This document shows, one piece after another, positions 1,817 to 61,381 of a DNA stretch of 64,000 bases (the first letter of the stretch is position 1; each line of letters starts with the position of its first letter). Location of the stretch: IMG/VR virus record IMGVR_UViG_3300020530_000006; one strand, 5' to 3'. The notes beneath the pieces are model-generated. The model was not told the origin of the DNA. It saw nothing but the letters and a program-made list of their open reading frames with translations, and did no database searches. The DNA comes from a virus. A program made the translations under genes and the position numbers.

Positions 1817-2578
1817 ATGATGGCAAGACCAAAAAAGAATTCTACAGAAACTACGGAGGTAGAGGCGGTGTGTTCGGAATCGACCAAAAACACAAATGAT
1901 ATGAATAAGCCTAATCAAAACGATATTGGTTGGACAGACTATGTTCTAGGATTGTTGTCTGATGACGAGAAAATAAGCGGCAACCCTACTACGGACGGAT
2001 TAAGGCGTGTCTTTGAAATAGCATTAAATTGTGCTGTTGTAGAATCTACTAGTAATGTTGTTCAAACCCCCGATATTAACAACGAAAAACGAGCAACTGT
2101 GGTTCATACCATAGGCTATATATTAAATAATTCCGACAGCAACAGCGATCCCATGCTTTTAAATATGAGGACTGTGAGCGGCGCTGCGGACGTTTATTGG
2201 GGTAATTGCGACAAGGTGTTTAGAAATCATCCGGTTGCCGTTGCCGAAACACGAGCCGAAGGACGAGCATTAAGACGAGCACTTAAACTACGCAAAGTAG
2301 TGGCTGCGGAAGAATTGGCCAAAGATATTGAGGACCATCCTGATCATGATACTGTAAATAAGATTACTAATAATCAGATTAATTTTATTGATGTTCTTAG
2401 TAAAAGACTAGATATCAATGTTAATAAGATGCTAGAAAAACTTGGATACGAAAGCAAGAATATCTATAATATAGAGCATGCAAATGCTATTGAAATTAGT
2501 AAACTATTATCGTCATATCAGCAAGATATTTCCGCAATCACTGAGGATATAAAAGGATATGACACAAACTGGAAGTAG
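1817..2578 (+). CDS. Putative ssDNA-annealing recombinase (Rad52/Sak-like)
   Basis: AVAETRAEGRALRRAL motif typical of Rad52-like phage annealing proteins; C-terminal ITNNQINFI helical domain. Confidence 0.5.
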   Translation: MMARPKKNSTETTEVEAVCSESTKNTNDMNKPNQNDIGWTDYVLGLLSDDEKISGNPTTDGLRRVFEIALNCAVVESTSNVVQTPDINNEKRATVVHTIGYILNNSDSNSDPMLLNMRTVSGAADVYWGNCDKVFRNHPVAVAETRAEGRALRRALKLRKVVAAEELAKDIEDHPDHDTVNKITNNQINFIDVLSKRLDINVNKMLEKLGYESKNIYNIEHANAIEISKLLSSYQQDISAITEDIKGYDTNWK

Positions 2579-2586
2579 GGTGTTAT

Positions 2587-2913
2587 ATGAAATTAAATTA
2601 CAAGGTTAGTGATAAACTACAATTTGAACTTGAGGGTGCTGGTCAAAAAGAAGTATTTAAGGAATTAGCTATTATTCAAGAAATTTTTGGCGAGAAAAAT
2701 TGTGGTTTGTGCGGTAAGGATAGTATCAGATTTGTGGTTCGTAATGTTGAAGATAATGATTATTATGAACTACGATGTGATTGTGGTGCTATACTAGCAT
2801 TTGGTCAGCATAAAAAGGGTGGCACTCTATTTCCAAAACGCAAAGATGATGAGGGTAACTATTTGCCAAATAAAGGCTGGCATAAATGGAATAAAGAAGT
2901 TAAGGATAGGTGA
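2587..2913 (+). CDS. Zn-ribbon protein
   Basis: CGLC...CDCG Cys pairs. Confidence 0.6.
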   Translation: MKLNYKVSDKLQFELEGAGQKEVFKELAIIQEIFGEKNCGLCGKDSIRFVVRNVEDNDYYELRCDCGAILAFGQHKKGGTLFPKRKDDEGNYLPNKGWHKWNKEVKDR

Positions 2914-3407
2914 TGAGTCCTCTTTATTTTAATAATGGAAAATTATTAATAGTTAATGGTAAGTTAGCAACTAACAGCAATTGCTGCTGCGGCGGCGGAT
3001 GCCCGCCGGGCTCAACGTGCTGTGGCTACTACCAATACAAGGTCGATTACTGCGAACAGGTTGGCGGCGAGTGGGTGCAAGCGTTCGGTTCAAACCCTGG
3101 AGATCCCTGCGAGTGCTGCAATGGCTTTGAAAGCAGAGTTTGGTTTGAGGGCGACCTAGGCTTTGGACTTATTCGCGTCCTTGAATGCCACCGGTACTGG
3201 TGCGGCGAGGAAGTAAGCGGAATCCCCGACTACTGTTGCGGCGACAACGTGACGCAAGAGCAATCAGACTTTTGCAGCCTGTGGTGGATGCGGCTGTCAG
3301 GTCAAATCCCATCGGACTTGGTTGACCCGGACGCCGTGTGTGCCTATGCCTCATCGTACCCCGCTGATGTCATACAGATTGGGTGCGTCGAGAACCCGTT
3401 GCCATGA
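2910..3407 (+). CDS. Cys-rich protein (possible virion/tail-tip accessory)
   Basis: Short N-terminal beta segment, then CCC and many Cys; start overlaps the upstream stop; the part after CCC is GC-rich. Confidence 0.6.
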   Translation: MMSPLYFNNGKLLIVNGKLATNSNCCCGGGCPPGSTCCGYYQYKVDYCEQVGGEWVQAFGSNPGDPCECCNGFESRVWFEGDLGFGLIRVLECHRYWCGEEVSGIPDYCCGDNVTQEQSDFCSLWWMRLSGQIPSDLVDPDAVCAYASSYPADVIQIGCVENPLP

Positions 3408-3847
3408 TCCGCTGCCACCTGCACCACCTAGAGGCCCGCTGCCGTCAGCGTGGCTACACGCTCGACGAGGTGCGGCCGTGCATCGTGAGTCAAGACGGCG
3501 ACACGATCACGGTTGACGAGACACATCCGGCTTACCCGAGTGTGCCGAAGCCGGGACTATCCTCTGAAACAAAGATTTCACCAAATCCACACACCCCTAT
3601 CTCTGGCGTCGGCACAGAATTAAAAAAACTTTTAGGTAAAATTGGAATCAAAGCAACTCCTAATTGCTCATGTAATAAAAAAGCATTACTAATGGATACT
3701 AATGGTATAGAGTGGTGCGAAAAGAATGTTGATACTATAGTTGGATGGTTAAGAGAAGAAGCGACCAAAAGAAAACTGCCCTTTATTGATATGGCAGGAA
3801 GAATATTAGTTAAACGAGCTATAGGTAATGCTAAGAAGCGGATATAA
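3404..3847 (+). CDS. Conserved-looking hypothetical protein with Cys motifs (two-domain, GC mosaic)
   Basis: ATG at 3404 overlaps the upstream TGA (ATGA coupling); GTELKKLL...CSC...EWC...LPF C-terminal domain. Confidence 0.6.
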   Translation: MIRCHLHHLEARCRQRGYTLDEVRPCIVSQDGDTITVDETHPAYPSVPKPGLSSETKISPNPHTPISGVGTELKKLLGKIGIKATPNCSCNKKALLMDTNGIEWCEKNVDTIVGWLREEATKRKLPFIDMAGRILVKRAIGNAKKRI

Positions 3848-4200
3848 ATTTAGAAGCAAAACCTTTAGCGGTACATCCTTCTAGGATAGAATACCCAGCA
3901 CTATTTGAAACTTTGATTGTTCTTCCTATAAGATCAATATCTCCTCCTGTTACTTTTTCTACACTAAGCCAAGCAAAACCGCTATTAATTTTGGTGATAG
4001 TACCAAAGGATGTGAGATCGAATTAGCAGGATGGCAACCTGACGATTGCCCTGGACATATAGCTAGTGTGCAATTAATTAAAAATTAATTTATAATAATA
4101 AATCACAAATAATAGATAATCTATGGTTACACATAGATAAAGGATCAGAAAAAATGACACCAGCAAGACAGTCTCTTATAGACTATATAGATAAATAATA

Positions 4201-13437: not shown

Positions 13438-16400
13438 TTATGTATTAAGTGTTGATGCTGTAATTTTAATCCAATTATCATTGCCGCCATGAGCTAGTGT
13501 TATGTTATATAGAGAGGATAACGTTTCAAATGCGGATCCTGCTCCTGATTTTCTAATTTCTATAGTATTAACAGATGACATATTAGCTATAGTAAATTTT
13601 TTACCTAAATATAAGCCCGTGCCATTTGGTAGATAAACAATAGAAGATCCTGTTGGATATAAAAATTGATACTCGGCGTCTGTGTGTGTTAACTGTCTGG
13701 GTGATACAAAAGTTCCGGACGATGCTAAATTATTATATTCTACTTGATTATTTTGATACAATAATGATTGAACACTTCCACTACCAGAAACGGAAATCAT
13801 AGAGGGTAATATTAATTGATCGGTACTAAAAGATGTAAAGTCACCGGTTGCATATGTTCCATCAAAATCTATATCTATTACTTTTGAGATGCTATTACGA
13901 ACAATAAAATCTCCCTCATCACTAACTTCCATTGTGCCGCTGTTCCAAACGCCTGTTCCAATACTAACTACATCATTAATAACAAAAAGTTTCGCGTTAT
14001 TTCCGGAAGTCCCACTACCAACAACGATCTTATCTAGATATCCAGTTTTAGCTATAAGATCTTCAACATATGTTGTATTTGGTTGAATTCCAGTTATATT
14101 TTGTCCAAAAATAAATACATTATCATATCCTCCATCGTTATTATACCCACCAAAGATTACATTAAAATCCCCACTTGAAACATTAGCAAAACCATTTATT
14201 GTGGTATAATCGCCGGTCGAGTTATTTACTGCTCCAGCTATAATAGAACTATGTATTCCACTAATACTATTATTTGCTCCACCTAATATACAGCTCCATG
14301 TGCCACTACTACCTATAGTATTAGATTGACCACCACCAATAAAACTTTCTTGAGCATTATTAATATTTTGGCTTCCACCAATTATGGAAGAGAAAGATCC
14401 CGCTGTTCTATTGTTATATCCGCCACCTAAAAAGCTATAAGTTCCTGATGCTACACTAAGAGCAGATGATCGTCCTCTTTGTAGATCAACCGCATAAGAT
14501 CCTCTAAGATTACCAGAAGGATCTAATTGAAAAGCATTAGTTCCACTAGGAACTAGTATTAGGTTACCGCTTGTGGAACTTAATGTATTTCCATCCAATT
14601 TTAGATTATCCACAGATATACTACCATAAACTATCAATCCAGAATCCACAACAAAATCTGATGATGTTTTAACAACAACTCCGGTGTTGCTAACATTGAT
14701 ATAATTACTAGCATCAGTATAAAGGCTTATAATATTATTACCAGAAAAAGATGCTAAACTATTATTAGAAAGTAGTATATTGTTAATTCCAGAAACTTTT
14801 GTATTAGCGCCGATAACAATATTATTATTGCCAGACGATACTATGTTATTGCCAAAAACTAATCCGCCAGATCCGTATATTTGATTGAGGTATCCGGCCA
14901 TAAATCCGGTGTTAGAAATTGAGCCATAGTTTCCTATACCAAAAGCCACAAGAGAACCATCGTTCGCGGTTGCTAACAAAGAATTATTTTTACCAACAGC
15001 AACAGAGTTGTTTGCTGTAACGAGATTAGATTCTCCTAAACCAACAGAGTAGTCACCGTGCGCTCCGTTAAGATAACCACAAGTAACCGAGTACAAACCA
15101 CTATTAGCATTACCGATACCTATTGCGGTAACATAATCTTCATTGACTTCGTTATTATTGCCAATTATAACTACTCCAAAATTACCACTACTTAAGCATG
15201 TGTTATTTATACCAAATATGCTCATGTTCGATCCTGAACATACTATGTCATCTCCAAAAAGAATATTATTTGTACCACTAGTAACTATTGATTTTCCAAA
15301 AATAAAGTTTCCAGAACTTATAACAGTATTATCGTGTCCAACTACTGTATTTACGCCACTAATACTATTGCGACCTATAGAGGCCCCATTACCATTAACG
15401 TTAATAATTTCCGAAAGCACTCCACTATTAAGACTTTTAACAATGAATGTTGATCTTTCAGAGTTGTTTGTAATAGCATTTATATTAGATACTAAGGCTA
15501 AACCTGTTTTTTCCACACCAGATGAGTTTACAAATGTGAAGACTAAAGATTCATCAATACCGCTTGCTAATATTGATTTATTTTTAATACTGAATACCAC
15601 ATTATTATCTGTTAATGTTGTGTATGTTGCATTACCGGAACTGGTGATTGAGAAGTGATTATCGTTATTTGTGGCTATATAAATTTTATTATTGCCACTA
15701 ACACTCACATTTTCCCCACCTATTACCCATATGTTATTTCCAGACGCTGAATGATTGCTACCTATTAAACCACCAAATGTACCAGACGATAAGGAACAGT
15801 TGTCTCCTATAACAGCACAGTTTTCTCCACAGATATTATTATAGTATCCGAGAACAACGTTATTGCCTTCGTTAGATGATGCTCCACCTATGATTGTTCC
15901 GTCAAGATTAGAATTATTAAAACCAAGAGTTATTCCACTAGGAGCAAAAACTGCCACATCTTCGAACGATCCATTATTCATGATACCAATATTGACTAAA
16001 GATTTTTCTGATCCGCTAGTTGTTGATTCTATTTCTGTTACGATTTTACTGTACGCAACAGGAGCATTAGCAGAATTTAATCCAGAATAAGTTATTGTTC
16101 CAACCACATTATTTGTGGCTAAACCACTGGTTGACGTATTTCCAAGAACAATTGATGGACCAACACCACTCTTATAGATAACTATTCCATTTTTATTATT
16201 ACTATTTATTGTTAAAGTATCGTATGCGGCGGATGTGTTTATTCCTATAGTATTTGCTCCGCCATCAACAAATAGCAGATGGGTATTTCCTGTACCAGCT
16301 ACTCTAAGATCATTATCATATAATCTTTGATTAAAAATTGTGGTTTGTCCAGAAGATGATGGCAGAACTATATCTGCTGTGGCATTTCCAGAATTGCCTA

Positions 16401-17157
16401 TTAGTAGTGAACTGCTAGAATAATCCCACACAAAATTATTGACTCCACTAAATGATCCATCATATTTAAATTGTACATAGCCATCATTACCGTATGGATT
16501 GGTGGAATCTTGAACAGGATCTAACTTTAACCATCCTGTTTGTGATGGTACAGAAATCAGTTGTAGATAATCATTTAGTATTGTTACTGTTTCAGAAGAT
16601 GTCGAGCCGTTTATTGTCTCTGTTCCATATGGATCTAAAACTATAGCGTTTGATTGTTCGTAAGCTCCACCTATTGTGGATTTTAATAAAAATGATAAAA
16701 TTACAGGATCATCTTCGGAATTTACTTGTGGTAGAGTTACTGTTACTCCGGTAACAGAAGCATCCACAACATAAACCGCAGGAGCATATGGTGCGGTAAA
16801 AGATGATGATTTTTCTTCTAAATTAACAAACCCATTATTAATTAGATTGTCGGCAACAACACTCTCTACATATTTTGTGCCAGATGAGAAACTAACAAAA
16901 TTATTACCATTTGTAGAAGATAATACTCTCTCTCTAACTAACTGATTAACTCCACCACCACTACTAATATAGCCAATACCAATTTCCCACTCCAAGTTTG
17001 TGTCTCGTCTATATATATAATAGGCTAGTTTTTTGTCCGATCCTATTGCACCAACAAAAGATCTGGATCCTAGTGTGGCTCCGGAAAGAACAAAATTTCC
17101 CGAACCATTTGTTGTTGATGTTTCTTGAATTTTATTAGCATAATATGTTATAGACAT
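13438..17157 (-). CDS. Tail fibre/spike protein with beta-helix (YadA-like) repeats
   Basis: N-terminal ETSTTNGSGNFVLSGA anchor, GxxN repeats, modules shared with the 44064-49166 fibre. Confidence 0.7.
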   Translation of the reverse strand: MSITYYANKIQETSTTNGSGNFVLSGATLGSRSFVGAIGSDKKLAYYIYRRDTNLEWEIGIGYISSGGGVNQLVRERVLSSTNGNNFVSFSSGTKYVESVVADNLINNGFVNLEEKSSSFTAPYAPAVYVVDASVTGVTVTLPQVNSEDDPVILSFLLKSTIGGAYEQSNAIVLDPYGTETINGSTSSETVTILNDYLQLISVPSQTGWLKLDPVQDSTNPYGNDGYVQFKYDGSFSGVNNFVWDYSSSSLLIGNSGNATADIVLPSSSGQTTIFNQRLYDNDLRVAGTGNTHLLFVDGGANTIGINTSAAYDTLTINSNNKNGIVIYKSGVGPSIVLGNTSTSGLATNNVVGTITYSGLNSANAPVAYSKIVTEIESTTSGSEKSLVNIGIMNNGSFEDVAVFAPSGITLGFNNSNLDGTIIGGASSNEGNNVVLGYYNNICGENCAVIGDNCSLSSGTFGGLIGSNHSASGNNIWVIGGENVSVSGNNKIYIATNNDNHFSITSSGNATYTTLTDNNVVFSIKNKSILASGIDESLVFTFVNSSGVEKTGLALVSNINAITNNSERSTFIVKSLNSGVLSEIINVNGNGASIGRNSISGVNTVVGHDNTVISSGNFIFGKSIVTSGTNNILFGDDIVCSGSNMSIFGINNTCLSSGNFGVVIIGNNNEVNEDYVTAIGIGNANSGLYSVTCGYLNGAHGDYSVGLGESNLVTANNSVAVGKNNSLLATANDGSLVAFGIGNYGSISNTGFMAGYLNQIYGSGGLVFGNNIVSSGNNNIVIGANTKVSGINNILLSNNSLASFSGNNIISLYTDASNYINVSNTGVVVKTSSDFVVDSGLIVYGSISVDNLKLDGNTLSSTSGNLILVPSGTNAFQLDPSGNLRGSYAVDLQRGRSSALSVASGTYSFLGGGYNNRTAGSFSSIIGGSQNINNAQESFIGGGQSNTIGSSGTWSCILGGANNSISGIHSSIIAGAVNNSTGDYTTINGFANVSSGDFNVIFGGYNNDGGYDNVFIFGQNITGIQPNTTYVEDLIAKTGYLDKIVVGSGTSGNNAKLFVINDVVSIGTGVWNSGTMEVSDEGDFIVRNSISKVIDIDFDGTYATGDFTSFSTDQLILPSMISVSGSGSVQSLLYQNNQVEYNNLASSGTFVSPRQLTHTDAEYQFLYPTGSSIVYLPNGTGLYLGKKFTIANMSSVNTIEIRKSGAGSAFETLSSLYNITLAHGGNDNWIKITASTLNT

Positions 17158-17168: not shown

Positions 17169-20100
17169 CTATTTTTTAGAAGTGCGTAAATCTAATTTAA
17201 TTCCACCATTAGTTTTATTACTTAATTCGGTTGATATTGTATTATAAATATCGTCAGCAAACTGCTCAAGTTTTTCTCCCAATCCTTGTCCGCCATTAAC
17301 TGTTACTGTTACATTTACTGGTATGGACCCTGTTACATTAAGGCTTATTGAATCTGGTATGCCGTCGAGGGCAGATTGTAATCTACCAACAGCAGTATTA
17401 AATTCTCCGATAGAAGTTGTTAGTCCTGTTGATGCTCCTCCTAATAATGCTGCTGCTGTTGATAATGCTGTAAATCCACTTACGATACTATCTAATGCTC
17501 CAAATCCACTTATTATTGCTGATCCGCCACTAACAAATTCTTGAATACTACCAGATAACTGGCCAACAATAGAATCAAAAGACGAAAATGAACCATCCAA
17601 ATTAGAAGTATCAATTGATAATACACCGCCAGATGATCCTCCGGATGAACTAATATTACCACCATTAACTCCACCATCAGCAAAATATTTGGGTTTTACC
17701 ATACCTCCGGTATTGTAGTTTTGACTATTAATTTGTTGTAATAAGCCTAAATTTTGTCTAGTGGCTTTACGATTGACCACAAATTCTCCCGGAGTTAACA
17801 TTGCGGGAACAGTGTCGGTTCCTCGTGGTTGATAGTTTACTAATTGGCCCTTACTAGCATAAACAATACCACCAGTAGACATATTTTGAGTGCGTCTTCG
17901 TTCCATTTCTTGTTGATATGCTAGTTGTTTATTTTTCTTTGAATCTTCATAATTTTTACGTTTATCCTCTTGCATTGATGAATAATTAAATTTACCTCTT
18001 TGTACTTTATAAAACGCTAAAGAGTCCTTATATTGACTATAAGCTGATTTATAACCTACTATTTTATTAGATTCATTCCCCAGCTCGCCAACTAAAGCAC
18101 TTCCTGCTTTCAGACCTAAACTTAAAGAAGATAAATCCCCTTCTCTAACACCAGATAGTTTTCGATTTTTAAAGGGGTCTTCTGCATTATTTTCCAAAGC
18201 CCAAGCTGCATCAGCTTTCTTTTTTTCCTCAAAACGTTTTTTATCAAAATCTTTTGGAACTAAAAATGTTTCTAATGATTTGTTTTTAAAATCTTCTAAA
18301 CTATAAATAGAAGGTAATCCAAACTCTTCAAAAGATTCTATTGTCTTACCGAAGTTATTTTTTATATAATCATTAACCGCAGTTAAATATGTTGTAGTAT
18401 CTGTCTTTAGTGGGTCCTCCTCTAACGATTGTTCTTGTGCTCTTATTAATAATTCTGATCTTAAGCGATCAAACTCTTTTATTGCAAATATGTTTTCTCT
18501 ATTTTTTTGTTCGGTCTGAGCTGTTTCATCATTATCGCTTTGAACTATTTTTCCTTTTTCTCTTGTGTCTAGACCAGTAATTCTTTGTGTCTTGCCTGGA
18601 GTTGTTTCACCGAATAATTCTTCATCAGCCTTCTTAATATATCTAGCGTCTGTTATAAATTTATCTTTAATTGGTGGTACGGGTGGTTGGGGTGGCGTCA
18701 TACCTACCAACCCTTTAATAAATTCTCTGTATGTTGGCTCATCATAATAATCTGGTTGAGCACCACTTACATTCTCAAGCATTTCTTCAGCCTTAGTATT
18801 CATGCTTTGCATAGTTTGGATAGAAGCAGCAGTAGTACCAACAACTCCTCTAATAGATTCTGGAAGCATTCCAATTAATTTTGAACCGATAGTTTGAGGC
18901 GCTGATACTCCAGCGGGTTGTTGAGTAGGTGTTGGAGTCTGATTATCGAATAGAGAAACCATATCGTCTAATATGTATGTTGGTGGACCTTGACGATTCT
19001 GTAAAGATTGTTTAAGTTTATTATACGCGTCATTATATGGTGTTCTCCAAGCATCAAACTCTATATTAGACATTTTGCTAATTTCTTCGCCACTGCTTTG
19101 TATCAAGCTCATTATAGCAGTCTCGAAATCCATAACAGCCTGATTATCTATGGTATTTGGAGATAGTTCTGACTGCCCTTTAATCCAGCCTAGTCCAGTT
19201 TCTATTTCTTTAGCAGCGTACTCGAATTGTTCTGGAGTTAGGTTTTGATCGGTGAAAGACGATGCGAAAAGCAAGTCCATACCTTCTCCGAGATGTCTCA
19301 TACCCAATAAGCCATCTCCATCTTTTTGTTCTGGCTTCTGAACATCTCCACCATCCTGTAAATAAGCAACCCCACCCTTACTATATCCCTTAGCGCCACC
19401 ATTAATAGATCTGAGAAGTCCAAGATTGTTTTTAGTGGCTCTGGCATTTACCACAAACTCTCCCGGAGTAAGCATAGCGGGTACAGTATCTGTGCCACGA
19501 GGTTGATATGGAACTAGTGTGCCTTTGCTGGCATAAACAGTTCCGCCCTTTTTATATCCATGCGCTTTCCACATTTGTCTTAAAATTTCTTGAGCTTTAG
19601 AGGATTTCTCAAATAAGTCTTTAGTAGCAGGGTCGAAAGCGGCTTGATTAAGAGTAGTAAAAAATTCTGCTCCAGCTACATTAGAGTTTGGATTTCTAAC
19701 AAATTTAGCATTATATGCGCTATTTAGTCCTTTAGCTATATCATTATATTCTGTATCCAAAAAAGAGTCCAATAATTTTGGATCAACCATCTTTTTCAGT
19801 TCATCATATGTCATATTCAATTTACCAGCCATACCAGCGGCAAAATGTGTAGATTCATGAACCCCTGTTGACATTTGCGATCCAGGACCTACTCCTATAA
19901 CCGGATTTGAAGATACACTACCTTTTTTAGTAAATATTCCTTTAGCCTTTTTTATATATGATGATGTATCAGGTAATCCACGAGCTCTAAAGTTCGTAGA
20001 CCATTTATTTGCTACTTTATTGAGATGTGTTTCAAAAGCGGCTGGGTCATCTATCCATGCCAACTCATCAGCGGATGCTTTTTCTAGCATGTCTATTAAA

Positions 20101-23100
20101 AATGCTTCTTGTTTATCTGGATTAACATTTCGTGACAAAGCTTCAAAGGCATCTCTTTGAGCCTGAGGTATATTTTCTGCGTATGCTTTTGCTTTAGATG
20201 ATAAAGCTATATCTTTTATAGATTTTGAAGATCTTGCTCCAATAGGACTAGAAAGACCAGACTTGATTGTGCTTCTACCCTCAGGAAAAAGATTTCTTAA
20301 TTCTTCTAATTTTTGTTCTACTGTAATTCCTTGTTCCGCTGCTCTTGCTCGTATAGCATCTCCAAAAGACAAAGGTTTTTCTTGAGTTATTGGTTTTGGT
20401 TGTTCAATTTGAGTTATTGGTTTTGGTGTCTCTGGAATTGGTTGAGTTGTTTTGGTTCTTTTCTCTGATCCTAATTTTACCAGATCTTCTAAAGGATTTT
20501 CAGATAGTTTTTGTTGTTTTTGTAAATTTTCAAACCATTTTCTTGTGGATCTATCTCTAAATATATTACTTATATTTTCACCAAAACCCATAATTTTTTC
20601 ACCAAGGCCAAAACGACCAGCTCCTTGCGCTCTTGCGGTTTTTCTTGCTTGTTTCTTCATCCAGTCTATTTTTGGAAGGACGCCTATTTTTCGTAATGAA
20701 TTTAAAATTGGGCTTTTTTCAAACTGTAACAAACCTCTAGCGGCGCCCATAGCTCCTTTACCAGCACCCATAACTCCTTTACCAGCAATACTAGCAGCAC
20801 CCATAACGCTCTTACCAGAAATACTGGCCGTACCCATAAGTGCCTTGCCGGTAAAATCTTGTAAACCAGCTAGACCTTTTTCGGCCAAATCAACACCTCC
20901 AAAAAAACCTTTTTTAATTCCTCCTCCAAGAATACCAAGTCCTCGTCCAACTGTTTGTCCAAACTCTGTTGACGCTTTTTGATCCAATAGATTTGCTGTC
21001 ATATTAGCAAAATTTGTGCCTGTGCCAGATGTTGTGCGATTTGCAATATCACTAGAAGCTCCTGTTGGAAATCTTACGTTTGTATTATCAAATAAATCAG
21101 CACTAGCTGTTGTTGTTTTAACAGGGGTTGGTGGTCTGGGTCCGACAGATTTTGCCATTCCTTTGAAAGCATTTGGAAACAATCTTCCAAATAACTTTTC
21201 ACCACCAATATCACCAGCTGCTTCACCGAAAATATCTCCTGTTGTAATGGCTCCTCTAACAACATTTTCAGGAGTTAACAGATTACCCAACGTTGTTCTG
21301 TTATCTGTTTGATAGGCCCCACTAGCTCTCTCCACTTCTTGAGATATCAAAGCTTCTCTTCTTTTCATTGCTTCTTGTTCCGCAGTACCATATGCTTCTC
21401 CAAAGCCCAAACGAGATCCTAATCCTGAGCCAACTTGTCGGATTCCTTCTATACCCATTCCGGCCTGAGCGCCGCCGGATTTTGCTAACTCTTGACCAAA
21501 CTGAGTAAGCATATCACTTCCAGTAAGTTTGCCAGCTCCATAAGTTAGTCCACCAGCAAGAACACCGGCTCCGCCAACAGTTGTTCTTATAACATTAGCA
21601 ACATTCTTTGGAACAGCACTAACAGCAGCTAAAACTGGACTTTTATCAACACCTTCGCCAAATTGTTGCAAGGCCGTATCCATATTTTTCTTAGCAAAGT
21701 CTTCTTGAGATTTAGCGACCATCTCTTGTCTTGCTCGTCCCTGTCTATTATATTCAACAGTAGCTGACGTTACTATCTCTCCTATTCTAGCTCTCAATGA
21801 TGACCTAGATTTGGCTAAAGGCACGTTGACTCTCCTTCTATCCCAATCAGTACCATAAATAGATGGTGTTTGTTCTCTTATTCTATTTTCAATAAATTCT
21901 CTTAAAATAGGATCGGATGTTTGGTTATAATAGCTACTGTTTCTATACATATCTACGAGAGACGCCCCAAAACTTTCTGCCTGGTACATTTTTGTTTCTT
22001 CTTTCAGACGTAATTTTCTTGCTTTATCATCGGAAAGAACCTTTTGTTGAGCCTCAAAAGCCTGTCGTGCTAAAACACCCTGTTTTTCAGCATCGCTTGA
22101 AAATGGTTTTTTAGTTAGTGGATTAATTTCTGTTCTTGCCTGAGTATCTGCTTGTTTCACAGTTTCCATCTGTCTTTTAGTTTTCTCAATTTCCGCAAAA
22201 CGTCCCTCAAATTCTTGTTTTCTTTGTTGTTCTCTTTCAGCCGCCTGAGCGTTGATCTGCGCTTGTCTTAATTTATCTCTTTCGTCAATGCTTAGTGGTC
22301 TAGATGCTGTTGAATAATCTCCATCCCTAATTCCAAGATCATCAGCACTAACTATACCAGCATTTACGGCTTTTCGAAGTTCTTCGGCTTGTAATTGAGC
22401 TAATCTTGGAGCATCTGCTGCTCTAGCTTCTCTAACTTTGTCTCCTTCAGCATTAGCTGCTTTTGATCTTCCAAATTCATAATTCTTAATAAATTCATTT
22501 ATAGCAGCGTCTACTGATTCTATATCTTCTGGAGCTAAAGATTCGTATCCTAATGGTCTTTCACTAGTGGCTCGCAAATCTTTAAAAATAGCATCTAAGT
22601 CAGCTTGGGATCCTGATCCTAATAGATCAGCATAATATTTGTCATCACCACTAGATGTCAAAAATTTACTAAATAATTGTTTACCTTTATTGATATCTAT
22701 TACGCCACCATCAGCTAAATAAACCATACCCCCCTTAGAATATCCAGTATTATTAGATCCATTATTTATAGATTTTAATAATCCCATATTCTTTTTGGTG
22801 GCTCTAGCATTAACAACAAACTCGCCAGGAGTTAGCATCGCTGGCACAGTGTCGGTTCCTTTTGGTTGAAAATTAACTAGCTGGCCCTTGCTAGCATAAA
22901 TCATTCCTCCTCTAGAAGCATAACCAGCAACATTGGCAGGATTTCCATCTATACCAACACCAACCGGACGCGCTTCTAATGGTAAATCTCCAGCATTTTT
23001 TATTCTATCTAGAAATGCATCTGCTGCTTCTATTACTTTAGTCTTTAAAATTTCAGATGAGTCTTCCATACGTTCAGATAATAGTAATGTGGCATCTGTT

Positions 23101-26100
23101 TGAGCTTTTATTGCTTGATTATATTGATCAATTGCTTGGGTCATTTTAGCGTCCGGACCGCCAACTCCTATTAATCCTCGTATAACTTCTGGATCTACCT
23201 TTAATCCGGCCTTTTGTAAAATATTAATAATATTATTATAGAATTTTTCTGTTGCTGCTTCTCTTTCTAATGGATCCATACCAGCAATTCTTGTTCTAAA
23301 GGCTTCAAGTGCTGGGCCTATATCATATATAGTGCCTGCTCCTTGATCAACTCTAACGAGAGAGCCAACTTGACTAGTAAATTCCGATATCCATTCTGGA
23401 TTATTTAGATTTTTAAGTATTTCATCAAAGGTTCCTCGTCTACTTTCTTGTGCTTGTCGTAGTTCTCCGATTCTAGTAAGAGCATTAGAAGCTCTTGTGG
23501 TATTATTAGCAAGCATTTCTTGTGCTTTAGCAAGCCTATCGACCGTTGTTTTATTTTTGGCTAATCTAGTGTAAAATTCATCTAAACTTTCACCCTTTTG
23601 CTGACCACCCGCTTGTGTTTGAGCAAGTTCTTTGTCTGCTTGAGCTAATCTACGAGCTATCTCTTCTGGATCTAGGGTTCCGGTTCCACGAACAATTCCA
23701 TTCGGTCCCTGAGTACTTGTTAAAGAGTCTATAGCGTTTTCAAATGGTCTATTTAATTCTGTTACTGAAACTCCTTTGCCAAGAGCTTGTTTAAGATTAT
23801 TAGCAGCATCTAATTCGATAGAAGATGCTTGGATTTGTAAATCTAAAATTCTACCAAGATGATTGGTATAATTATTCATTTCATTATTGGTTGCGCTTAG
23901 CATGTCATTGAATGCTTTCAACGAAGACTCAACAGTTGATGTAACATCAGCCAATGGCTTTAATAATCCTTGTAATTCCGGTACACTAGCAGCAATCTCT
24001 TCGAAACTCTTTCCTTGTAGTGATGTTGCTGATTTACCAAGAGCGGTAACAACATTTTTTAATGCTGTATCTAGAGTTGTTGAATCTATTTCTTCTCCTA
24101 GTGCTGCCTTTAATGGATCAAACACCTCTGTTATTCTGTCTGTAACAGATTGATCTACTTCTCCTCCAGGAGTTTTTTGAGATTGAGCAGCCTCTAGTAG
24201 AATTCGTGGTAACTCCGATTCTAATGTTTGCTGTGCTACAGCGCTAGTTTTTATTTGTTTGCTAAATTCTGGAGAAAATCCCAAAGTTTCTGATGTTCTA
24301 TCTAATGCTTGAACAAGTTCGTCTGTAGAATATGCTGTTAAATTACCTAATACATTTTCATCTAATCTTGATGGACCAACTATTTTGGCATCTCCTAGAC
24401 CAGAGGATGTTGCTATGTCTCGTAATCTACCAGCTTCTGCAAATTCAGCATCGGCCCTACTTATAACCCCTCCTAATTTTTTAATCTGTTGAGCGAACAT
24501 ATCTATTTCAACGCTCACAGCTTTTGCTGCTGCTGCATTTTTATTACGAGTCTCTATTTCTTTTAATTCTTCCGAGGACAATCTGTCTATAGCTGCTGCT
24601 CTTTTTGCATTCAAAGCTTCTAGTTTTCTTGTTTTTTCTTCTTCTGCTGTCTCAACAGTACCATTTGCTCTAATGTCTCCTCCAGTATAACGCTTAGTTT
24701 CTGCCGCAGCAATATCTGCTTCTATTTTTGTAACTTCGTCTTTGCCTCTAGCAATTGCTAGTGTTCTTTTTGTTTCAGGATTAGCATCTGCTCCTGTAAG
24801 TTTCAGATTTTTAAAAACGTCTTCTAAAGATATTCCGGATGTTAATTGTGTTTCTATGGCTCTTTGTAACGCGGTTGCTTGTGGTAAAGATTCAGATAAA
24901 AGATTTCTATTAAGGGCTGTTGTATCTATTGTTTCTGGTGTTGTTCCAAAATATGTTTCTGAAAAATTAGCGGACGCGTCCCTAAAAAACTCTCCAATAA
25001 ATCTTCCTATGGTTCCTTCTTCTAGTCCTAATAAGCCTTGTGACTCTCTGGTAACAATTTGTCTATTTTCAGCCCCAGATGACATAATAGCCATAAGAGC
25101 ATTACTAGCGTCGGATATATTGCTTGCTGTGTCTCCAACATTTTGTGAAAGATTTTGTAGTGCTTTTTCAAGTTTAGATGATTCGGTTTCTATTTTTAGT
25201 TCGTTCTGGGCTTTAGTATAAGCGTCTGCTGCCGATTCGGCATTTATAAAAGCAGAAGCTAGTCCAGCAGCAGCTCCAACAATAGCTCCGGGAGCACCAA
25301 AAGCTGAACCAACAGTAGCCCCAGAAACAACAGATGTTATCCCAGCACCAACAACAGCTCCGGTTTTACCAAAATTTTTAGTTACAGAAGAATTAATAGC
25401 TTCTGCTATCATTGGCCCAATAAACATCAAGCCTAGAGATTTTAATCCGCCACCACTATCATTAGTTTGATTCGCTGTTTGATTGGCTGCTTTTTGATTT
25501 CTACTTCTCATATTATTTATGCCGCCAGTGGCATATCCGGCATTAACCATTGCGGCTTTCAAAGCAGCTCCAGACAACCCTTGCTGTCTAAATGTCGCCA
25601 CTTGTTGAGCGGCCATATTTTTTGTAACGGTTGCGGTAGTGGTAGATAGTTGATTAAAACTAGGTATTAATTTAGAAATAACCGACACTAATCCACTAAA
25701 TACTTGAGCCATACCACCGGCCGCAAAACTTTGAACTCCTCCACCACCAGCAAAACTTTGTATATTTCCGACAGCTCCACCCTTATTAAATCCTTGTGTT
25801 TTATCAGCTTTATTAAGTTGATGTAATTTGGATGAACCTATTCTTTTTGCCGCTTTTTTATTTATAACAAATTCGCCAGGAGTTAATAGTGCCGGAACAG
25901 TATCTTGTCCAGAAATTGAACCACCCGTAGCATTAGCAGATATTAATCCTGCTGATTTTAATTTTTCAATAAGTTTACTATTGGTCGCCAACGCATTATC
26001 AAGAACATTGCCTGTTGCTTTTGGCATTTTTCTACCAATATTAGGCAATCCGAATTCACCTAATACACTATTAAGTTGTGTTTGATTTGTTGGACTTTTT

Positions 26101-29039
26101 TTAGCAATATCAAATAGATTCTGAGCGGTAAAAGCATTAGGAGCTAATTTTATTGATTTAGAAAATTCTCCTTTATTTACTGCTTTAGTAAATCTAGATA
26201 TCTGATCAACAAAACTTGATATACCTTTACCAACGCCTCCGGAAGTTCTTGTTGCATCAGTTGGTACATCTGTTGGAAATTGACCAAACAATTTAGAAGC
26301 AGTACCTAGGCCAAATGGAAAATCTATAGATTTTAATGATTCTACCTTATCAATAAATGGAGCACCAACCATTTGTAAAGCGGCTTCAAATATGCTTCCA
26401 GTAGCACTACTTAATACTGCTCCACTTAAAATATTTTTTTCTAAGTTTCCAGATGCTGGTGTTGCTTTTATGGATGATGCTAATGCTTTACCAGTATTTA
26501 CAATCACTCCTTCTAAACTATCAACGATATCTTTTTCAATATTGCCATATTGAGATTTATTGTCTGATAAAGCTCCGACATGAATTCTTGCTCTTTTACC
26601 AGTATCTTTAATTGGCCTATTCTCTATCCTACCTCCTTTGGAAGTACCTGACTTTAACGATACTAATCCAAAATTATAATTGCCTTGTCTATCAATCATA
26701 TTTCTATTAATTAGATTTTCAAAACTACCAGCATCCTCAACCTGAGATTTTAATTGTGGACTAAGTTCTTGAACCTTGGCTCCTTTTTTAAATTTTTGAA
26801 CTATACCACCATTATTAAATGGATATAGTTGCATAAATTTTTGTTTTTGTCCACGCCCCATCTCTATGGTATCTAAATTACCAATATTCACATCATCTGT
26901 ATTTGGAGTAAAATTATATCTAGAAAGAGTATTTTGTTGATATTTATATCTAAATAATTTACTTAAAAGATCTAGTATTGGAACTTTTTTACTAGTAAAT
27001 TTAACTTCAGTAGGATTTTTTCTACCAATAATATCAACAGGATAACTTTGTGGAGTTCTTGTTCCTCCATAAAATTTTTCAACACCTGTTTCGAAAGCGT
27101 CTCCAGCAGCTATATCTTTTAGTTTTTTATCGGATGCTTTAGGACTTTTTTGTTTTAATTGAAGATATCTCTGTTTTGCGTTGTTTTGAATAAATGTCCA
27201 CTTAGGATCATTTGGTTTAATGGTTTCTGATTTACGATTAATATTTCCTCTAATGCTGTCATTTGGTTGTATTTTTGAGCTATATGCTTTTTTAATTGTT
27301 TCCGAACCACTTCTTCTTTCTAAATCTTTTAATTTAACCGGGCCTCCACCAGCATATTTATTCATATTCTTCAAACCATTAAGACCAATTGCTTGTACTG
27401 CTTTTTTACGAATAACAAATTCGCCAGGAGTTAACATAGCAGGAACGGTATCTCTATTTCCTGATCCTGGTACATATCCACCACTAGCAAACGCTCTTAC
27501 TGGTCCACCATCATTTTTTCGAGCTATGTTTCTACCAAAACCACCAACAAATTGACCAATCGCAGGGATGGCTTTTATAGCTGTTAGTGCTGCTATTGCT
27601 GGTAAAACTTCTTTAGCCGCAGAAGCCACGCTTATAAGAGCGCTCGCTAATTGAAGAGAAATATCCACAAATCTTTGAAAGTTTTTACTTTGTCCTATAT
27701 CACGAATTAAAGCTATAAATTCTTCTCTGACTTTTGTAATTTTATTAGCTAAAGATATTTGTGCTATTGCTGCATCTTCAGCCAAAGATCCGGCTCCTCT
27801 TTGAGCGACCCCTAGAGCCTGTTGAGCAACCGTGAATTGTTGAATAAGAGGAATAACCTTGCCGATTTGTCGGAAGCCACCAAGTTCTTCTACTATTTTA
27901 TTAAATCTAAGATCTCTTGGATCTAATAATTTTAAGCCTTCGCTAAGTCTTCTGATTGCTTCGTATGGTCCAACGAATTTACCTTCTAAATCTGTTAAAA
28001 CAACACCATATTCTTTTAGTGCTTCTATGGTGCTTCCTCTTTGAATTCTTGTAAAGATAGTTCTTAAACCAGTAGCAATTGTTTCTGCACTTTCACGAGT
28101 GGTTTGACGAACACTTGTAAATACAGCAATAAATTCATTAAGAGCGTCTTTGCCTTGGCTAACTCCTTTACTAGCAGCAGCGAACACACCGCCCGTTCTT
28201 TGAATAGCTTTAATAATATCTCCTGATTCTACCGCGAACGCAGCAGCAACAGCATTTACAGAACCAAGCGAACTTTCTAGATCACTAGCACTAATACCGA
28301 ACTGTCTCATTAAAGCGATACTACCTTCTACGGTATCATTTAAATTATCGAAAGACGGAGCTAATGCGGATTTAGCTAAGGCTTCTAATGCCGTTTTTGT
28401 TTCTGTCGCACTTAAACCAGCCTGGGCGAGTGTTGAACTCACGGTCAATAAGTCTGAACTTGTCACACCAAGACTAGTGGATAGTCTGGTTATTTCGTTA
28501 GTGATGCCTTTCAATCCGTTTTCTGTTGCTCCAGTAACTTGTTGTAGTTTAACAAGTTCTTTATTAAAATTTAAGAATTCTCCATAGGCAGAGGCTACTG
28601 CTCTACTTAGCGCATATATGCCTCCGGTAGCAACACTAAACGCTGCGAATCTTCTGACCGCAAGAGCTGACTGCTTACCAAACTCTTCCATCTGTGATGT
28701 TATTTGAGCAGTGCTTTTTCTAGCATTATTAACTTGATTAGCTATATTATTTACGCCACCACCAAGATTATTCATTCCTCTAGAGGCATTTCCAATAGCT
28801 GTTCCAAGATTACTTAGAGCAGTATTTAAATTAGCAGCATTGGTTGATGCGCTTTTCAATGCAGCATTTAGTGACTGTATATTTCCGGTAGCTTGTTGTA
28901 TGCTAGATAGTGATCTAGGATTAATATTAAGATCAAGAGTTACTGTTGATAATTGACGACGAATATCAGATACAACTTTACTAAGATTGGACGGTCCTCT
29001 TAGATTAATTTCCGCGGTTAGATTAAAAGCTGATGCCAT
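17169..29039 (-). CDS. Tape measure protein, 3956 aa, multi-domain
   Basis: N-terminal TP901-like TMP core (LAQAGLSA...IATGLRTIFTRI); follows tail tube and chaperone genes; five DTVPA[ML]LTPGEFV motifs. Confidence 0.9.
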   Translation of the reverse strand: MASAFNLTAEINLRGPSNLSKVVSDIRRQLSTVTLDLNINPRSLSSIQQATGNIQSLNAALKSASTNAANLNTALSNLGTAIGNASRGMNNLGGGVNNIANQVNNARKSTAQITSQMEEFGKQSALAVRRFAAFSVATGGIYALSRAVASAYGEFLNFNKELVKLQQVTGATENGLKGITNEITRLSTSLGVTSSDLLTVSSTLAQAGLSATETKTALEALAKSALAPSFDNLNDTVEGSIALMRQFGISASDLESSLGSVNAVAAAFAVESGDIIKAIQRTGGVFAAASKGVSQGKDALNEFIAVFTSVRQTTRESAETIATGLRTIFTRIQRGSTIEALKEYGVVLTDLEGKFVGPYEAIRRLSEGLKLLDPRDLRFNKIVEELGGFRQIGKVIPLIQQFTVAQQALGVAQRGAGSLAEDAAIAQISLANKITKVREEFIALIRDIGQSKNFQRFVDISLQLASALISVASAAKEVLPAIAALTAIKAIPAIGQFVGGFGRNIARKNDGGPVRAFASGGYVPGSGNRDTVPAMLTPGEFVIRKKAVQAIGLNGLKNMNKYAGGGPVKLKDLERRSGSETIKKAYSSKIQPNDSIRGNINRKSETIKPNDPKWTFIQNNAKQRYLQLKQKSPKASDKKLKDIAAGDAFETGVEKFYGGTRTPQSYPVDIIGRKNPTEVKFTSKKVPILDLLSKLFRYKYQQNTLSRYNFTPNTDDVNIGNLDTIEMGRGQKQKFMQLYPFNNGGIVQKFKKGAKVQELSPQLKSQVEDAGSFENLINRNMIDRQGNYNFGLVSLKSGTSKGGRIENRPIKDTGKRARIHVGALSDNKSQYGNIEKDIVDSLEGVIVNTGKALASSIKATPASGNLEKNILSGAVLSSATGSIFEAALQMVGAPFIDKVESLKSIDFPFGLGTASKLFGQFPTDVPTDATRTSGGVGKGISSFVDQISRFTKAVNKGEFSKSIKLAPNAFTAQNLFDIAKKSPTNQTQLNSVLGEFGLPNIGRKMPKATGNVLDNALATNSKLIEKLKSAGLISANATGGSISGQDTVPALLTPGEFVINKKAAKRIGSSKLHQLNKADKTQGFNKGGAVGNIQSFAGGGGVQSFAAGGMAQVFSGLVSVISKLIPSFNQLSTTTATVTKNMAAQQVATFRQQGLSGAALKAAMVNAGYATGGINNMRSRNQKAANQTANQTNDSGGGLKSLGLMFIGPMIAEAINSSVTKNFGKTGAVVGAGITSVVSGATVGSAFGAPGAIVGAAAGLASAFINAESAADAYTKAQNELKIETESSKLEKALQNLSQNVGDTASNISDASNALMAIMSSGAENRQIVTRESQGLLGLEEGTIGRFIGEFFRDASANFSETYFGTTPETIDTTALNRNLLSESLPQATALQRAIETQLTSGISLEDVFKNLKLTGADANPETKRTLAIARGKDEVTKIEADIAAAETKRYTGGDIRANGTVETAEEEKTRKLEALNAKRAAAIDRLSSEELKEIETRNKNAAAAKAVSVEIDMFAQQIKKLGGVISRADAEFAEAGRLRDIATSSGLGDAKIVGPSRLDENVLGNLTAYSTDELVQALDRTSETLGFSPEFSKQIKTSAVAQQTLESELPRILLEAAQSQKTPGGEVDQSVTDRITEVFDPLKAALGEEIDSTTLDTALKNVVTALGKSATSLQGKSFEEIAASVPELQGLLKPLADVTSTVESSLKAFNDMLSATNNEMNNYTNHLGRILDLQIQASSIELDAANNLKQALGKGVSVTELNRPFENAIDSLTSTQGPNGIVRGTGTLDPEEIARRLAQADKELAQTQAGGQQKGESLDEFYTRLAKNKTTVDRLAKAQEMLANNTTRASNALTRIGELRQAQESRRGTFDEILKNLNNPEWISEFTSQVGSLVRVDQGAGTIYDIGPALEAFRTRIAGMDPLEREAATEKFYNNIINILQKAGLKVDPEVIRGLIGVGGPDAKMTQAIDQYNQAIKAQTDATLLLSERMEDSSEILKTKVIEAADAFLDRIKNAGDLPLEARPVGVGIDGNPANVAGYASRGGMIYASKGQLVNFQPKGTDTVPAMLTPGEFVVNARATKKNMGLLKSINNGSNNTGYSKGGMVYLADGGVIDINKGKQLFSKFLTSSGDDKYYADLLGSGSQADLDAIFKDLRATSERPLGYESLAPEDIESVDAAINEFIKNYEFGRSKAANAEGDKVREARAADAPRLAQLQAEELRKAVNAGIVSADDLGIRDGDYSTASRPLSIDERDKLRQAQINAQAAEREQQRKQEFEGRFAEIEKTKRQMETVKQADTQARTEINPLTKKPFSSDAEKQGVLARQAFEAQQKVLSDDKARKLRLKEETKMYQAESFGASLVDMYRNSSYYNQTSDPILREFIENRIREQTPSIYGTDWDRRRVNVPLAKSRSSLRARIGEIVTSATVEYNRQGRARQEMVAKSQEDFAKKNMDTALQQFGEGVDKSPVLAAVSAVPKNVANVIRTTVGGAGVLAGGLTYGAGKLTGSDMLTQFGQELAKSGGAQAGMGIEGIRQVGSGLGSRLGFGEAYGTAEQEAMKRREALISQEVERASGAYQTDNRTTLGNLLTPENVVRGAITTGDIFGEAAGDIGGEKLFGRLFPNAFKGMAKSVGPRPPTPVKTTTASADLFDNTNVRFPTGASSDIANRTTSGTGTNFANMTANLLDQKASTEFGQTVGRGLGILGGGIKKGFFGGVDLAEKGLAGLQDFTGKALMGTASISGKSVMGAASIAGKGVMGAGKGAMGAARGLLQFEKSPILNSLRKIGVLPKIDWMKKQARKTARAQGAGRFGLGEKIMGFGENISNIFRDRSTRKWFENLQKQQKLSENPLEDLVKLGSEKRTKTTQPIPETPKPITQIEQPKPITQEKPLSFGDAIRARAAEQGITVEQKLEELRNLFPEGRSTIKSGLSSPIGARSSKSIKDIALSSKAKAYAENIPQAQRDAFEALSRNVNPDKQEAFLIDMLEKASADELAWIDDPAAFETHLNKVANKWSTNFRARGLPDTSSYIKKAKGIFTKKGSVSSNPVIGVGPGSQMSTGVHESTHFAAGMAGKLNMTYDELKKMVDPKLLDSFLDTEYNDIAKGLNSAYNAKFVRNPNSNVAGAEFFTTLNQAAFDPATKDLFEKSSKAQEILRQMWKAHGYKKGGTVYASKGTLVPYQPRGTDTVPAMLTPGEFVVNARATKNNLGLLRSINGGAKGYSKGGVAYLQDGGDVQKPEQKDGDGLLGMRHLGEGMDLLFASSFTDQNLTPEQFEYAAKEIETGLGWIKGQSELSPNTIDNQAVMDFETAIMSLIQSSGEEISKMSNIEFDAWRTPYNDAYNKLKQSLQNRQGPPTYILDDMVSLFDNQTPTPTQQPAGVSAPQTIGSKLIGMLPESIRGVVGTTAASIQTMQSMNTKAEEMLENVSGAQPDYYDEPTYREFIKGLVGMTPPQPPVPPIKDKFITDARYIKKADEELFGETTPGKTQRITGLDTREKGKIVQSDNDETAQTEQKNRENIFAIKEFDRLRSELLIRAQEQSLEEDPLKTDTTTYLTAVNDYIKNNFGKTIESFEEFGLPSIYSLEDFKNKSLETFLVPKDFDKKRFEEKKKADAAWALENNAEDPFKNRKLSGVREGDLSSLSLGLKAGSALVGELGNESNKIVGYKSAYSQYKDSLAFYKVQRGKFNYSSMQEDKRKNYEDSKKNKQLAYQQEMERRRTQNMSTGGIVYASKGQLVNYQPRGTDTVPAMLTPGEFVVNRKATRQNLGLLQQINSQNYNTGGMVKPKYFADGGVNGGNISSSGGSSGGVLSIDTSNLDGSFSSFDSIVGQLSGSIQEFVSGGSAIISGFGALDSIVSGFTALSTAAALLGGASTGLTTSIGEFNTAVGRLQSALDGIPDSISLNVTGSIPVNVTVTVNGGQGLGEKLEQFADDIYNTISTELSNKTNGGIKLDLRTSKK
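17778..27452 (-). repeat. Five dispersed DTVPA[ML]LTPGEFV coding repeats in the TMP
   Basis: Copies at 27414-27452, 25866-25904, 22815-22853, 19452-19490, 17778-17816; the last three share the longer GG.[IV]YASKG.LV.[FY]QP.GT prefix. Confidence 0.95.
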
Positions 29040-60039: not shown

Positions 60040-60068
60040 ATCTGCGAAATATAACTAGGAATAAATCG

Positions 60069-60096
60069 GGCGATGTTAAGAGCATCGCCTTTTTTA
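60069..60096 (+). terminator. Rho-independent terminator
   Basis: GGCGATG-TTAAGAG-CATCGCC-TTTTTT. Confidence 0.8.
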
Positions 60097-61348: not shown

Positions 61349-61381
61349 GTCGATATAAGAAGTAACCCAGGAGAACAGAAG

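Follow-up and report, generated by a model that had tools for sequence, protein, structure and literature searches.

Background

In phage lambda, the tape measure protein (TMP) gpH matures to gpH* and gpHC by a cut in a Gly-rich stretch, which leaves a product of about 78 kDa (PMC12617516). The TMP of T5, pb2, is cleaved after R1127 (PMC10038345). For residues 1022-1066 of JBD30 gp46, a hub-anchoring hook made of helices and a short hairpin was predicted (PMC11445458), and its authors compared it with the last 43 residues of T5 pb2*, the part that is anchored in the hub once this has opened (PMC11445458, PMC10038345). Here we compare these systems with a TMP of 3,956 amino acids (aa) encoded in a 64,000-nucleotide stretch of viral DNA (further referred to as the window) from the IMG/VR record IMGVR_UViG_3300020530_000006, an uncultured phage genome of 159,255 bp rated 100% complete. 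The gene is a single uninterrupted open reading frame (ORF) at positions 17169-29039 of the minus strand, and its product carries five copies of a module that is present once in lambda gpH. Tape measures as such are a known kind of protein; the one described here is organised around gpH-type modules that are repeated in a fixed order.

Two other groups of proteins are relevant for comparison. Some TMPs contain small domains that are not part of the ruler and are delivered to the envelope on ejection, for example the SLT domain in Brevundimonas phage Bambus, the muralytic motif of T5 pb2 and the Rpf motif of TM4 (PMC1796659). Polyvalent proteins, on the other hand, are very large multi-domain proteins delivered with the DNA, and a zincin-like peptidase was proposed to process them; they are packaged in the head, and tape measures go unmentioned in their description (Iyer et al. 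2017, PMC5512222).

A repeated module of the gpH type

The initial annotation had described a tape measure with five repeats of DTVPA[ML]LTPGEFV, and this description holds. There are exactly five copies, at aa 530, 1046, 2063, 3184 and 3742. Each of them forms the centre of a longer module of 65-80 aa, with a predicted hairpin and helix and with [FY]xxGG words at its flanks. The general layout is [FY]AxGG, about 10 residues, DTVPAxLTPGEFV, a helix of the form xKKAxxxIGxxxLxxxN and then one to three more [FY]xxGG. In an AF2 model of aa 500-1110, the first module folds as a hairpin (518-524/531-536) followed by a helix (545-559), with pLDDT of 62-71. Matches to the module in the 159-kb genome lie inside the TMP open frame only. 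All 13 [FY]xxGG words listed by the initial annotation are present. The protein contains 15 words of the type [FYL]xxGG against 5.2 +/- 2.3 in shuffled sequences, and because 12 of the 15 fall within the five modules (9.5% of the protein), they are to be regarded as flanks of the module and not as separate signals. The modules match each other with E values from 1e-8 to 2e-35; the best match between any two inter-module segments has E of 0.05, in agreement with the earlier view that these segments are mutually unrelated.

The features of the gene are as follows (window coordinates, strand):

17169-29039, minus: TMP gene, 3,956 aa, single ORF; PF10145 and TMP PHROGs on the N-terminal part; 45 related loci
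27519-29039, minus: N-terminal TMP core, aa 1-507; conserved, PhageMin_Tail at aa 181-375, hydrophobic aa 456-502
27321-27518, minus: module 1, subtype A, aa 508-573; profile match 90 bits, FASGG..DTVPAMLTPGEFVIRKKAV..YAGGG
26925-27134, minus: nuclease-like motif region, aa 636-705; FE..YPVDII..EVK
26163-26765, minus: folded alpha/beta "X" domain upstream of module 2, aa 759-959; AF2 pLDDT 74-93
25710-25955, minus: module 2, subtype B, aa 1029-1110; profile match 90 bits, DTVPALLTPGEFVINKKAA..FNKGG..FAGGG..FAAGG
25227-25451, minus: Gly/Ala-rich hydrophobic stretch, aa 1197-1271 (a shorter one at aa 1102-1128); Kyte-Doolittle windows 1.25-1.64
22923-25226, minus: segment 3, long spacer, aa 1272-2039; 24-37% identity to many relatives, no family match
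22704-22922, minus: module 3, subtype C, aa 2040-2112; profile match 78 bits, 67-72% identical to modules 4 and 5
20232-22703, minus: segment 4, nearly private, aa 2113-2936; few homologues, Gly-rich tandem repeats at 20738-20857
19569-20231, minus: HExxH (zincin-like) domain, aa 2937-3157; HESTH at 19845-19859
19344-19568, minus: module 4, subtype C, aa 3158-3232; profile match 76 bits
17904-19343, minus: segment 5, acidic, Pro-rich, private, aa 3233-3712; one weak homologous stretch in relatives
17667-17903, minus: module 5, subtype C, aa 3713-3791; profile match 88 bits
17172-17666, minus: C-terminal tail, aa 3792-3956, hydrophobic aa 3835-3870; conserved to the C-terminus in two relatives (35-39%)

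A profile built from 63 modules of this TMP family matches lambda gpH (PDB 8IYK, chain 8iyk_H) at residues 732-793 with E of 2.3e-7; the two elements are homologous. The module of gpH reads FATGG..PAGIVHRGEFVFTKEAT..IG..NL..YATGG, and occurs once, with FATGG..KYEPAGIVHRGEFVFTKEATSRIGVGNLYRLMRGYATGG at aa 737-790. Like module A of the present protein, it directly follows a hydrophobic Gly-rich stretch, and it precedes the C-terminal hub-binding tail. The cut that matures gpH lies in the Gly-rich stretch just upstream of it (PMC12617516); cleavage anywhere in aa 710-736 would give a product of 77.7-80.0 kDa, compared with the reported size of about 78 kDa. Unlike gpH, which has one module in 853 aa, the protein described here has five modules of three subtypes, and its lambda-type module is trailed by about 3,400 aa. 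The core family differs as well (TMP_2/Tape_meas_lam_C in lambda, PhageMin_Tail here).

Among other cultured phages, the profile matches gp16 of mycobacteriophage Douge (PDB 8ZDO) twice, at 960-1028 and 1410-1460, with E of 1.6e-10. In Nodularia phage kac65v151 (Ravarandavirus), two modules stand in tandem (about aa 863-989), and their core, SDTVPAMLTPGEFVVNA, is nearly identical. Unlike the TMP described here, both have fewer modules and no recognised A-B-C series, and their virions are otherwise unrelated. The match to JBD30 gp46 is weak (E 0.45), with FASGG..SDSIP..EF..A..L..N aligned to the module, but the matched stretch, 1016-1066, is exactly the one for which the hook was predicted. JBD30 gp46 and T5 pb2 share with our protein the general plan of a ruler, a hydrophobic segment, a short anchor or hook and, putatively in our protein, a cleavage site and a C-terminal part held in the hub (PMC10038345, PMC11445458); in T5 the hydrophobic segment is followed by the anchor (PMC10038345), which resembles the hydrophobic stretch placed directly before module A. 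Unlike our protein, each of the two has a single element. The T5 cut site directly precedes AEGG..GEHGTEVV, and together with DTTQYLTLGE this gives a likeness by eye; with a profile score of 0.1 bit, however, pb2 is unsupported as a homologue of the module.

A tblastn search found the module only under annotated tape measures in phages of Mycobacterium, Gordonia, Clavibacter, Ralstonia, Shewanella, Brevundimonas and Nodularia. A "transmembrane protein" of the T4-like cyanomyophage S-SM2 of Synechococcus (GU071095.1, 7677-7823) contains a module that over 49 aa shares 63% of its residues with module A; the element is therefore not limited to siphophages. A Pfam search with the five modules alone gave no match, the module stretch of lambda gpH is covered by no Pfam model (TMP_2 spans 54-256 and Tape_meas_lam_C 627-701), and a literature search for the motif by sequence found no paper describing the module. 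It is thus widespread, from lambda through mycobacteriophages and cyanophages to more than 3,000 metagenomic proteins, yet absent from Pfam.

Ordered subtypes and age of the copies

Three position-specific subtypes of the module can be distinguished, and the five copies are ordered A-B-C-C-C. Subtype A, ..VPGxGxxDTVPAMLTPGEFVIRKKAV..NKYAxGG, is the lambda-like one; it is always first and directly follows the hydrophobic stretch. Subtype B, DTVPALLTPGEFVINKKAA..LNKADKxQGFNKGG..QxFAxGG, is always second in the relatives. Subtype C, GGxIYAxxGxxINFQPKGTDTVPAMLTPGEFVVNxKAT..YSKGG..DGG, occupies the third and later positions. When every module was assigned to its nearest type, the order A-B-C(n) was obtained in every TMP examined, with no inversion.

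The three longer repeats (modules 3-5) had been called near-identical. This has to be corrected, as they share only 67-72% of residues in protein and 63-70% of nucleotides. About half of the identical residues of the module copies are encoded by different codons, third-position identity is 0.45-0.57 and synonymous sites are close to saturation. Conservation of the protein in spite of this near-saturation indicates that selection acts on the peptide and that the copies are old. Recent duplication or gene conversion of the repeats is ruled out by the same observation. With DNA identity of 63-73% among all copies, they are moreover poor substrates for recombination inside the gene.

A giant tape measure and its relatives

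The protein is a genuine giant tail tape measure protein. Its N-terminal part contains the core domain PF10145 (PhageMin_Tail, aa 181-375) with 85.4 bits against a cut-off of 33.2, and aa 20-500 are matched by the TMP PHROGs 28, 4211 and 167 (E from 1e-27 to 1e-14). PhageMin_Tail is the sole Pfam match across the 3,956 aa even at E up to 1. Hydropathy reveals hydrophobic stretches at aa 456-502, 1102-1128, 1197-1271 and 3835-3870. The gene belongs to a long minus-strand block, on the same strand as TerL (55450-57453) and an MCP-like gene (50221-51222) with a weak PHROG match (E 4e-4). An artefact of assembly or fusion is ruled out, since a scan of IMG/VR found 45 related loci with the same architecture and with 51-74% identity in the N-terminal core; comparison of aa 1-507 with relatives gave 47-74%.

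In the related loci, the module occurs only on the TMP strand and in the TMP frame, except for one frameshifted copy (locus L017). Their TMPs have two to five or more modules with very uneven spacing, the distance from A to B ranging from 190 to about 1,900 aa. Full TMP ORFs of four relatives are 4,395 aa (G001, six modules), 4,356 aa (G003), 5,199 aa (G002) and 5,294 aa (G004) long, with 4-6 modules. The longest of them comes from the record behind locus L038, a 238-kb genome with direct terminal repeats. Two irregular cases were noted. In L026, a 1-nucleotide insertion near nucleotide 18753 splits the TMP ORF in comparison with L025, the upstream sequence being otherwise identical, and in L017 a further module lies in another frame at nucleotide 15901. 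Both are probably assembly errors or pseudogenes. The apparent short versions of the TMP include artefacts, and the short TMP of L017 probably reflects a frameshift as well.

In a collection of 5.8 billion proteins, the module was detected in more than 3,161 sequences no longer than 2,000 aa. Three copies are present in 106 of the best 120, where the core is typically succeeded by modules around aa 445, 650-850 and 1,700-1,850. Judged from this comparison, the TMP described here is an expanded form of the common A-B-C plan.

Conservation is distributed very unequally along the protein. Homology to relatives is high from aa 1 to about 570 and in most of them breaks directly after module A. Residues 1037-2114 are weakly conserved (24-37% identity), aa 2113-2936 and 3233-3712 are essentially private, and module 5 with the C-terminal tail is again conserved to the very end in loci L007 and L009 (35-39%). 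The 120 multi-module proteins give a similar picture: they cover the core with A, B with its upstream region, the C modules and the C-terminal tail, while none of them aligns to aa 2200-3000 or 3300-3500. The stretch aa 3700-3900 is conserved in 39 of the 120 and the last 56 aa in six. A phmmer search with aa 2116-3160 against 1.84 billion representatives returned nine proteins, four of which reach aa 2113-2936. The modules, the X domain and the C-terminal tail form a conserved scaffold, and the stretches between them are hypervariable. This landscape supports the notion of a segmented TMP in which a repeated conserved element alternates with unrelated variable segments, and among the relatives these segments are indeed far from invariant. 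Segment 4 further contains four to five tandem 33-nucleotide repeats (20738-20857) that encode Gly-rich 11-aa units GKxxMGxAxxx.

Mosaicism of related loci

Some pairs of close relatives change abruptly in similarity at the modules. Between L019 and L022, DNA identity is about 70-80% until module A begins, where it rises to 93-100%, and it breaks down once module C has ended. L018 and L020 share about 95% of nucleotides up to the end of module A and lose all homology there, and the same loss follows module C. When the ends of high-identity blocks were counted in one clade, 13 of 51 fell inside a module or up to 25 aa from it, with 4.7 expected, a count that includes near-duplicates (and is thus pseudo-replicated) and to which conserved modules may contribute by attracting alignment ends. 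Without near-duplicate sequences, about 9 of 34 ends remain at modules against about 3 expected. Mosaic junctions between relatives are thus roughly threefold enriched at module edges, and about three in four lie elsewhere. The idea that the repeats serve as recombination points consequently stands in part only, for exchange between genomes but not for the copies inside one gene, and alignment of the relatives shows a preference for module edges, not exchange at the motifs only.

Domains between the modules

The initial annotation also considered some of the segments enzymatic. Small domains that are not part of the ruler are present in some of them, but most inter-module sequence has no enzyme signature and the candidate domains match no family.

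The best defined is the X domain (aa 759-959), which has a confident alpha/beta fold (AF2 pLDDT 74-93) and is separated from module 2, downstream of it, by about 70 aa. The C-terminal core of the domain (about aa 824-956) recurs in 15 further TMPs of this family and precedes module B in those that were examined for it. The invariant residues are G, E, D, G, G, F and G together with a [DE]x[KT]RT motif. At motif level only, the pattern E..D..[DE]x[KT]RT resembles PD-(D/E)xK; the copy in our protein reads DATR, with the Lys replaced. Searches of PDB, Pfam, BFVD, Foldseek and VIA gave no match for the X domain, but the model used was multi-domain, so that the single domain was barely tested and the null result does not establish a new fold.

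The nuclease-like region (aa 636-705) contains E...PxD...(E/D)x(K/R), here FE..YPVDII..EVK, which is kept in four TMPs and again corresponds to the PD-(D/E)xK residue pattern at motif level only. No PDB or Pfam profile matched it. The AF2 model is confident only to about aa 659, aa 648-668 do not form the expected strands and the VDII..EVK part is either helical or has pLDDT below 50.

The HExxH domain abuts module 4. Four TMP fragments among the 1.84 billion representatives share it, directly upstream of a C-type module in all four, and all five aligned sequences have HE[LS][TA]H[FY] and a downstream Glu (AEFF / ELFT). The HExxH signature is thus accompanied by a conserved downstream candidate for the third ligand of zincins. 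Pfam gave no match (the best was M91, E 0.14, to one member) and neither did PDB; the AF2 model, with pLDDT of 42, was too poor for a structure search. In the ESM Atlas, the best named clusters for segments 2 and 5 were T7_gp14 (0.78) and the crAss cargo protein (0.76), which is chance level, and for segment 5 none reached 0.9.

Recognizable enzymes occur next to modules in other multi-module TMPs. In P0019, a metagenomic TMP of 1,619 aa, an ADP-ribosyltransferase exoenzyme domain (PF03496, aa 1015-1164, E 8e-20) ends 33 aa before the third module, and in P0060 an SLT transglycosylase domain ends 15 aa before a module. Our protein resembles the TMPs with embedded enzymes in having small domains inside a ruler, and differs from them in that theirs are recognizable cell-wall hydrolases. 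With the polyvalent proteins it shares the concept of a very large multi-domain protein that travels with the DNA, and a zincin-like candidate; however, the chassis here is a tail protein, and the Pfam search at E up to 1 yielded none of the several conflict-related enzymatic domains by which polyvalent proteins are recognized.

Possible function of the modules

We suggest that the modules are functional joints of the tape measure, and that the protein consists of a conserved scaffold and of filler that provides length. This is the best overall explanation we can offer, and we hold it to be probable, by a modest measure. The ground plan would be that of a lambda/TP901-type TMP with an N-terminal core, a hydrophobic stretch and one gpH-type module, extended by about 3,400 residues with four further copies of the module. 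In analogy to the model of JBD30 gp46 1022-1066 and to the anchor of T5 pb2*, the joints may act as docking hooks for the tail-tip hub or the tube, and they may also adjoin processing sites, as in lambda. The C-terminal tail, presumably the hub-binding end when compared with the structures of T5, Douge and JBD30, would sit in the hub, and the chain would fill the tube and set the tail length. On infection, the TMP would leave the tail C-terminus first and its hydrophobic stretches would enter membranes. The hypervariable filler would supply length to the ruler and occasionally host a small domain (X, HExxH, nuclease-like), which would reach the host envelope before the DNA, again with the C-terminus leading. 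The anatomy of the protein, the homology of its modules, their subtype order and age, the purifying selection on them and the variability of the spacers are established by the data; that the entire chain serves as ruler, that modules dock, that the protein is ejected and that it may be cleaved is what we infer from such comparisons.

Several facts weigh against this model. Docking is deduced from a prediction and from the similar position of the anchor in T5, the sequence of which misses the profile. In solved virions the module is not resolved; the visible parts are residues 818-849 in lambda, 1658-1699 in Douge and the last 33 residues in JBD30. AF2 confidence is moderate for module A and poor for module B. 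Five copies would be unexplained if each hub could take up a single hook, and the very irregular distances between modules (70 to 1,900 aa) disfavor a simple periodic structural role. Finally, for about 3,000 residues the term filler is derived from composition, scarce homologues and variability.

Alternatively, the TMP could be a polyprotein carrier. Cleavage at every module or next to it, while the tail matures or the protein is ejected, would then yield up to six fragments, several of which (the nuclease-like, zincin-like and X domains) would be enzymes acting in the host before or together with the DNA. The cut of lambda gpH, no more than about 25 residues ahead of the only module it has (PMC12617516), and that of T5 pb2 directly before AEGG..GE (PMC10038345) speak for it, as do the ADP-ribosyltransferase and SLT domains that end shortly before modules elsewhere and the similar positions of the HExxH and X domains; the HExxH domain might even be the processing peptidase. 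Yet the known cuts are one in lambda and one in T5, the latter with the negligible profile score given above, so the basis is analogy. The HExxH domain is confined to the present protein and the four fragments, and was not seen in those parts of the relatives' TMPs that were examined; being so rare while the modules are universal, it cannot be a general protease. A structured module of 65-80 aa in three strictly ordered subtypes is also more than a cleavage tag needs, and most of the inter-module sequence (aa 1272-2039, 2113-2936 and 3233-3712) lacks any enzyme signature and has few homologues or none. On balance we consider this explanation rather doubtful. Cleavage as such is plausible by analogy with lambda and T5; cleavage at all five modules remains a hypothesis.

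Two other readings leave the modules without any part in docking or processing. They could merely keep the TMP chains, three or six in number, in contact with one another or fixed to the wall of the tube, with no role in ejection either. In favor of this, the module is conserved at protein level and longer TMPs tend to have more of them (one in lambda, two in Douge, three in the common TMPs of about 1,900 aa, 4-6 in the present family); but the Bambus TMP has one module in 2,432 aa, no more than four are present in each of two TMPs of 5,200-5,300 aa, the spacing is as irregular as mentioned above, and the order of subtypes with A fixed behind the hydrophobic stretch suggests distinct roles. 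We find a purely structural register improbable. Still less credible is the assumption that the motifs are chiefly islands of conserved DNA for swapping of cassettes and have no function in protein. It would account for the excess of block ends at modules and for the jumps of DNA identity that border module A and follow module C. What is conserved, however, is the peptide and not the DNA, as the divergent codons demonstrate; the module persists from lambda to mycobacteriophages, and the majority of junctions, in an already pseudo-replicated count, lie elsewhere.

Returning to the joints, a bolder version can be formulated: the gpH-type module would be a portable joint for both hub docking and site-specific processing, and tape measures would be programmable polyproteins. 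We think it unlikely to be correct in this full form. If it were true, any domain inserted upstream of a joint would pass through the tail as a thread, be set free and regain its fold in the host before the DNA arrives. The cargo would be the zincin-like, nuclease-like and X domains in our protein and an ADP-ribosyltransferase or transglycosylase elsewhere, and the same element would explain the mechanism of maturation of gpH to gpH*. Regardless of that, the presence of the module beside the lambda cut offers a concrete, mutable handle on how and why gpH is processed, and a route to ask whether siphophage tails deliver enzymes within the ruler itself. The ordered A-B-C subtypes, together with enzyme domains placed just upstream of modules in other TMPs, represent a tractable system for the study of protein delivery through the tail.

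Tail length

Nodularia phage vB_NpeS-2AV2 has a tail of 795 nm (Table 1 of PMC6293099). Its TMP (locus L054, 10983-21197) has 3,404 aa and one tblastn match to the module; in the close relative kac65v151, with a TMP of 3,282 aa, both tandem modules were confirmed. The tail of vB_NpeS-2AV2 thus corresponds to 0.23 nm per residue. As an alpha-helix reaches only 0.15 nm, well below this value, the whole chain is needed to span the tail and the TMP must be partly extended in the tube. The expected tail of the virus described here would measure 0.59 micrometre at 0.15 nm per residue or 0.92 micrometre if the Nodularia ratio applies. Tails approaching a micrometre are implied by tape measures of 4,000-5,300 residues. 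Because folded domains do not fit a stretched chain, any inserted domain would have to refold after ejection, which was proposed for T5 pb2C (PMC10038345).

Genomic surroundings

No near-identical DNA was found in cultured phages, and the identity of TerL to that of any cultured phage is 26% or less. Neither the immediate neighbours of the TMP gene nor most other genes in the block have a family match. Large ORFs of 1,239, 490, 498, 782 and 1,306 aa follow the TMP gene; candidates for distal tail and hub proteins are encoded at 13438-17157 and by ORFs downstream. Between the head and tail genes (44064-49166) lies a gene for a collagen-like fibre protein of 1,700 aa with strong matches to many tail-fibre PHROGs. 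The GC content, which is 0.27-0.39 over most of the window, rises up to 0.42-0.49 at its ends (2001-4000 and 60001-64000).

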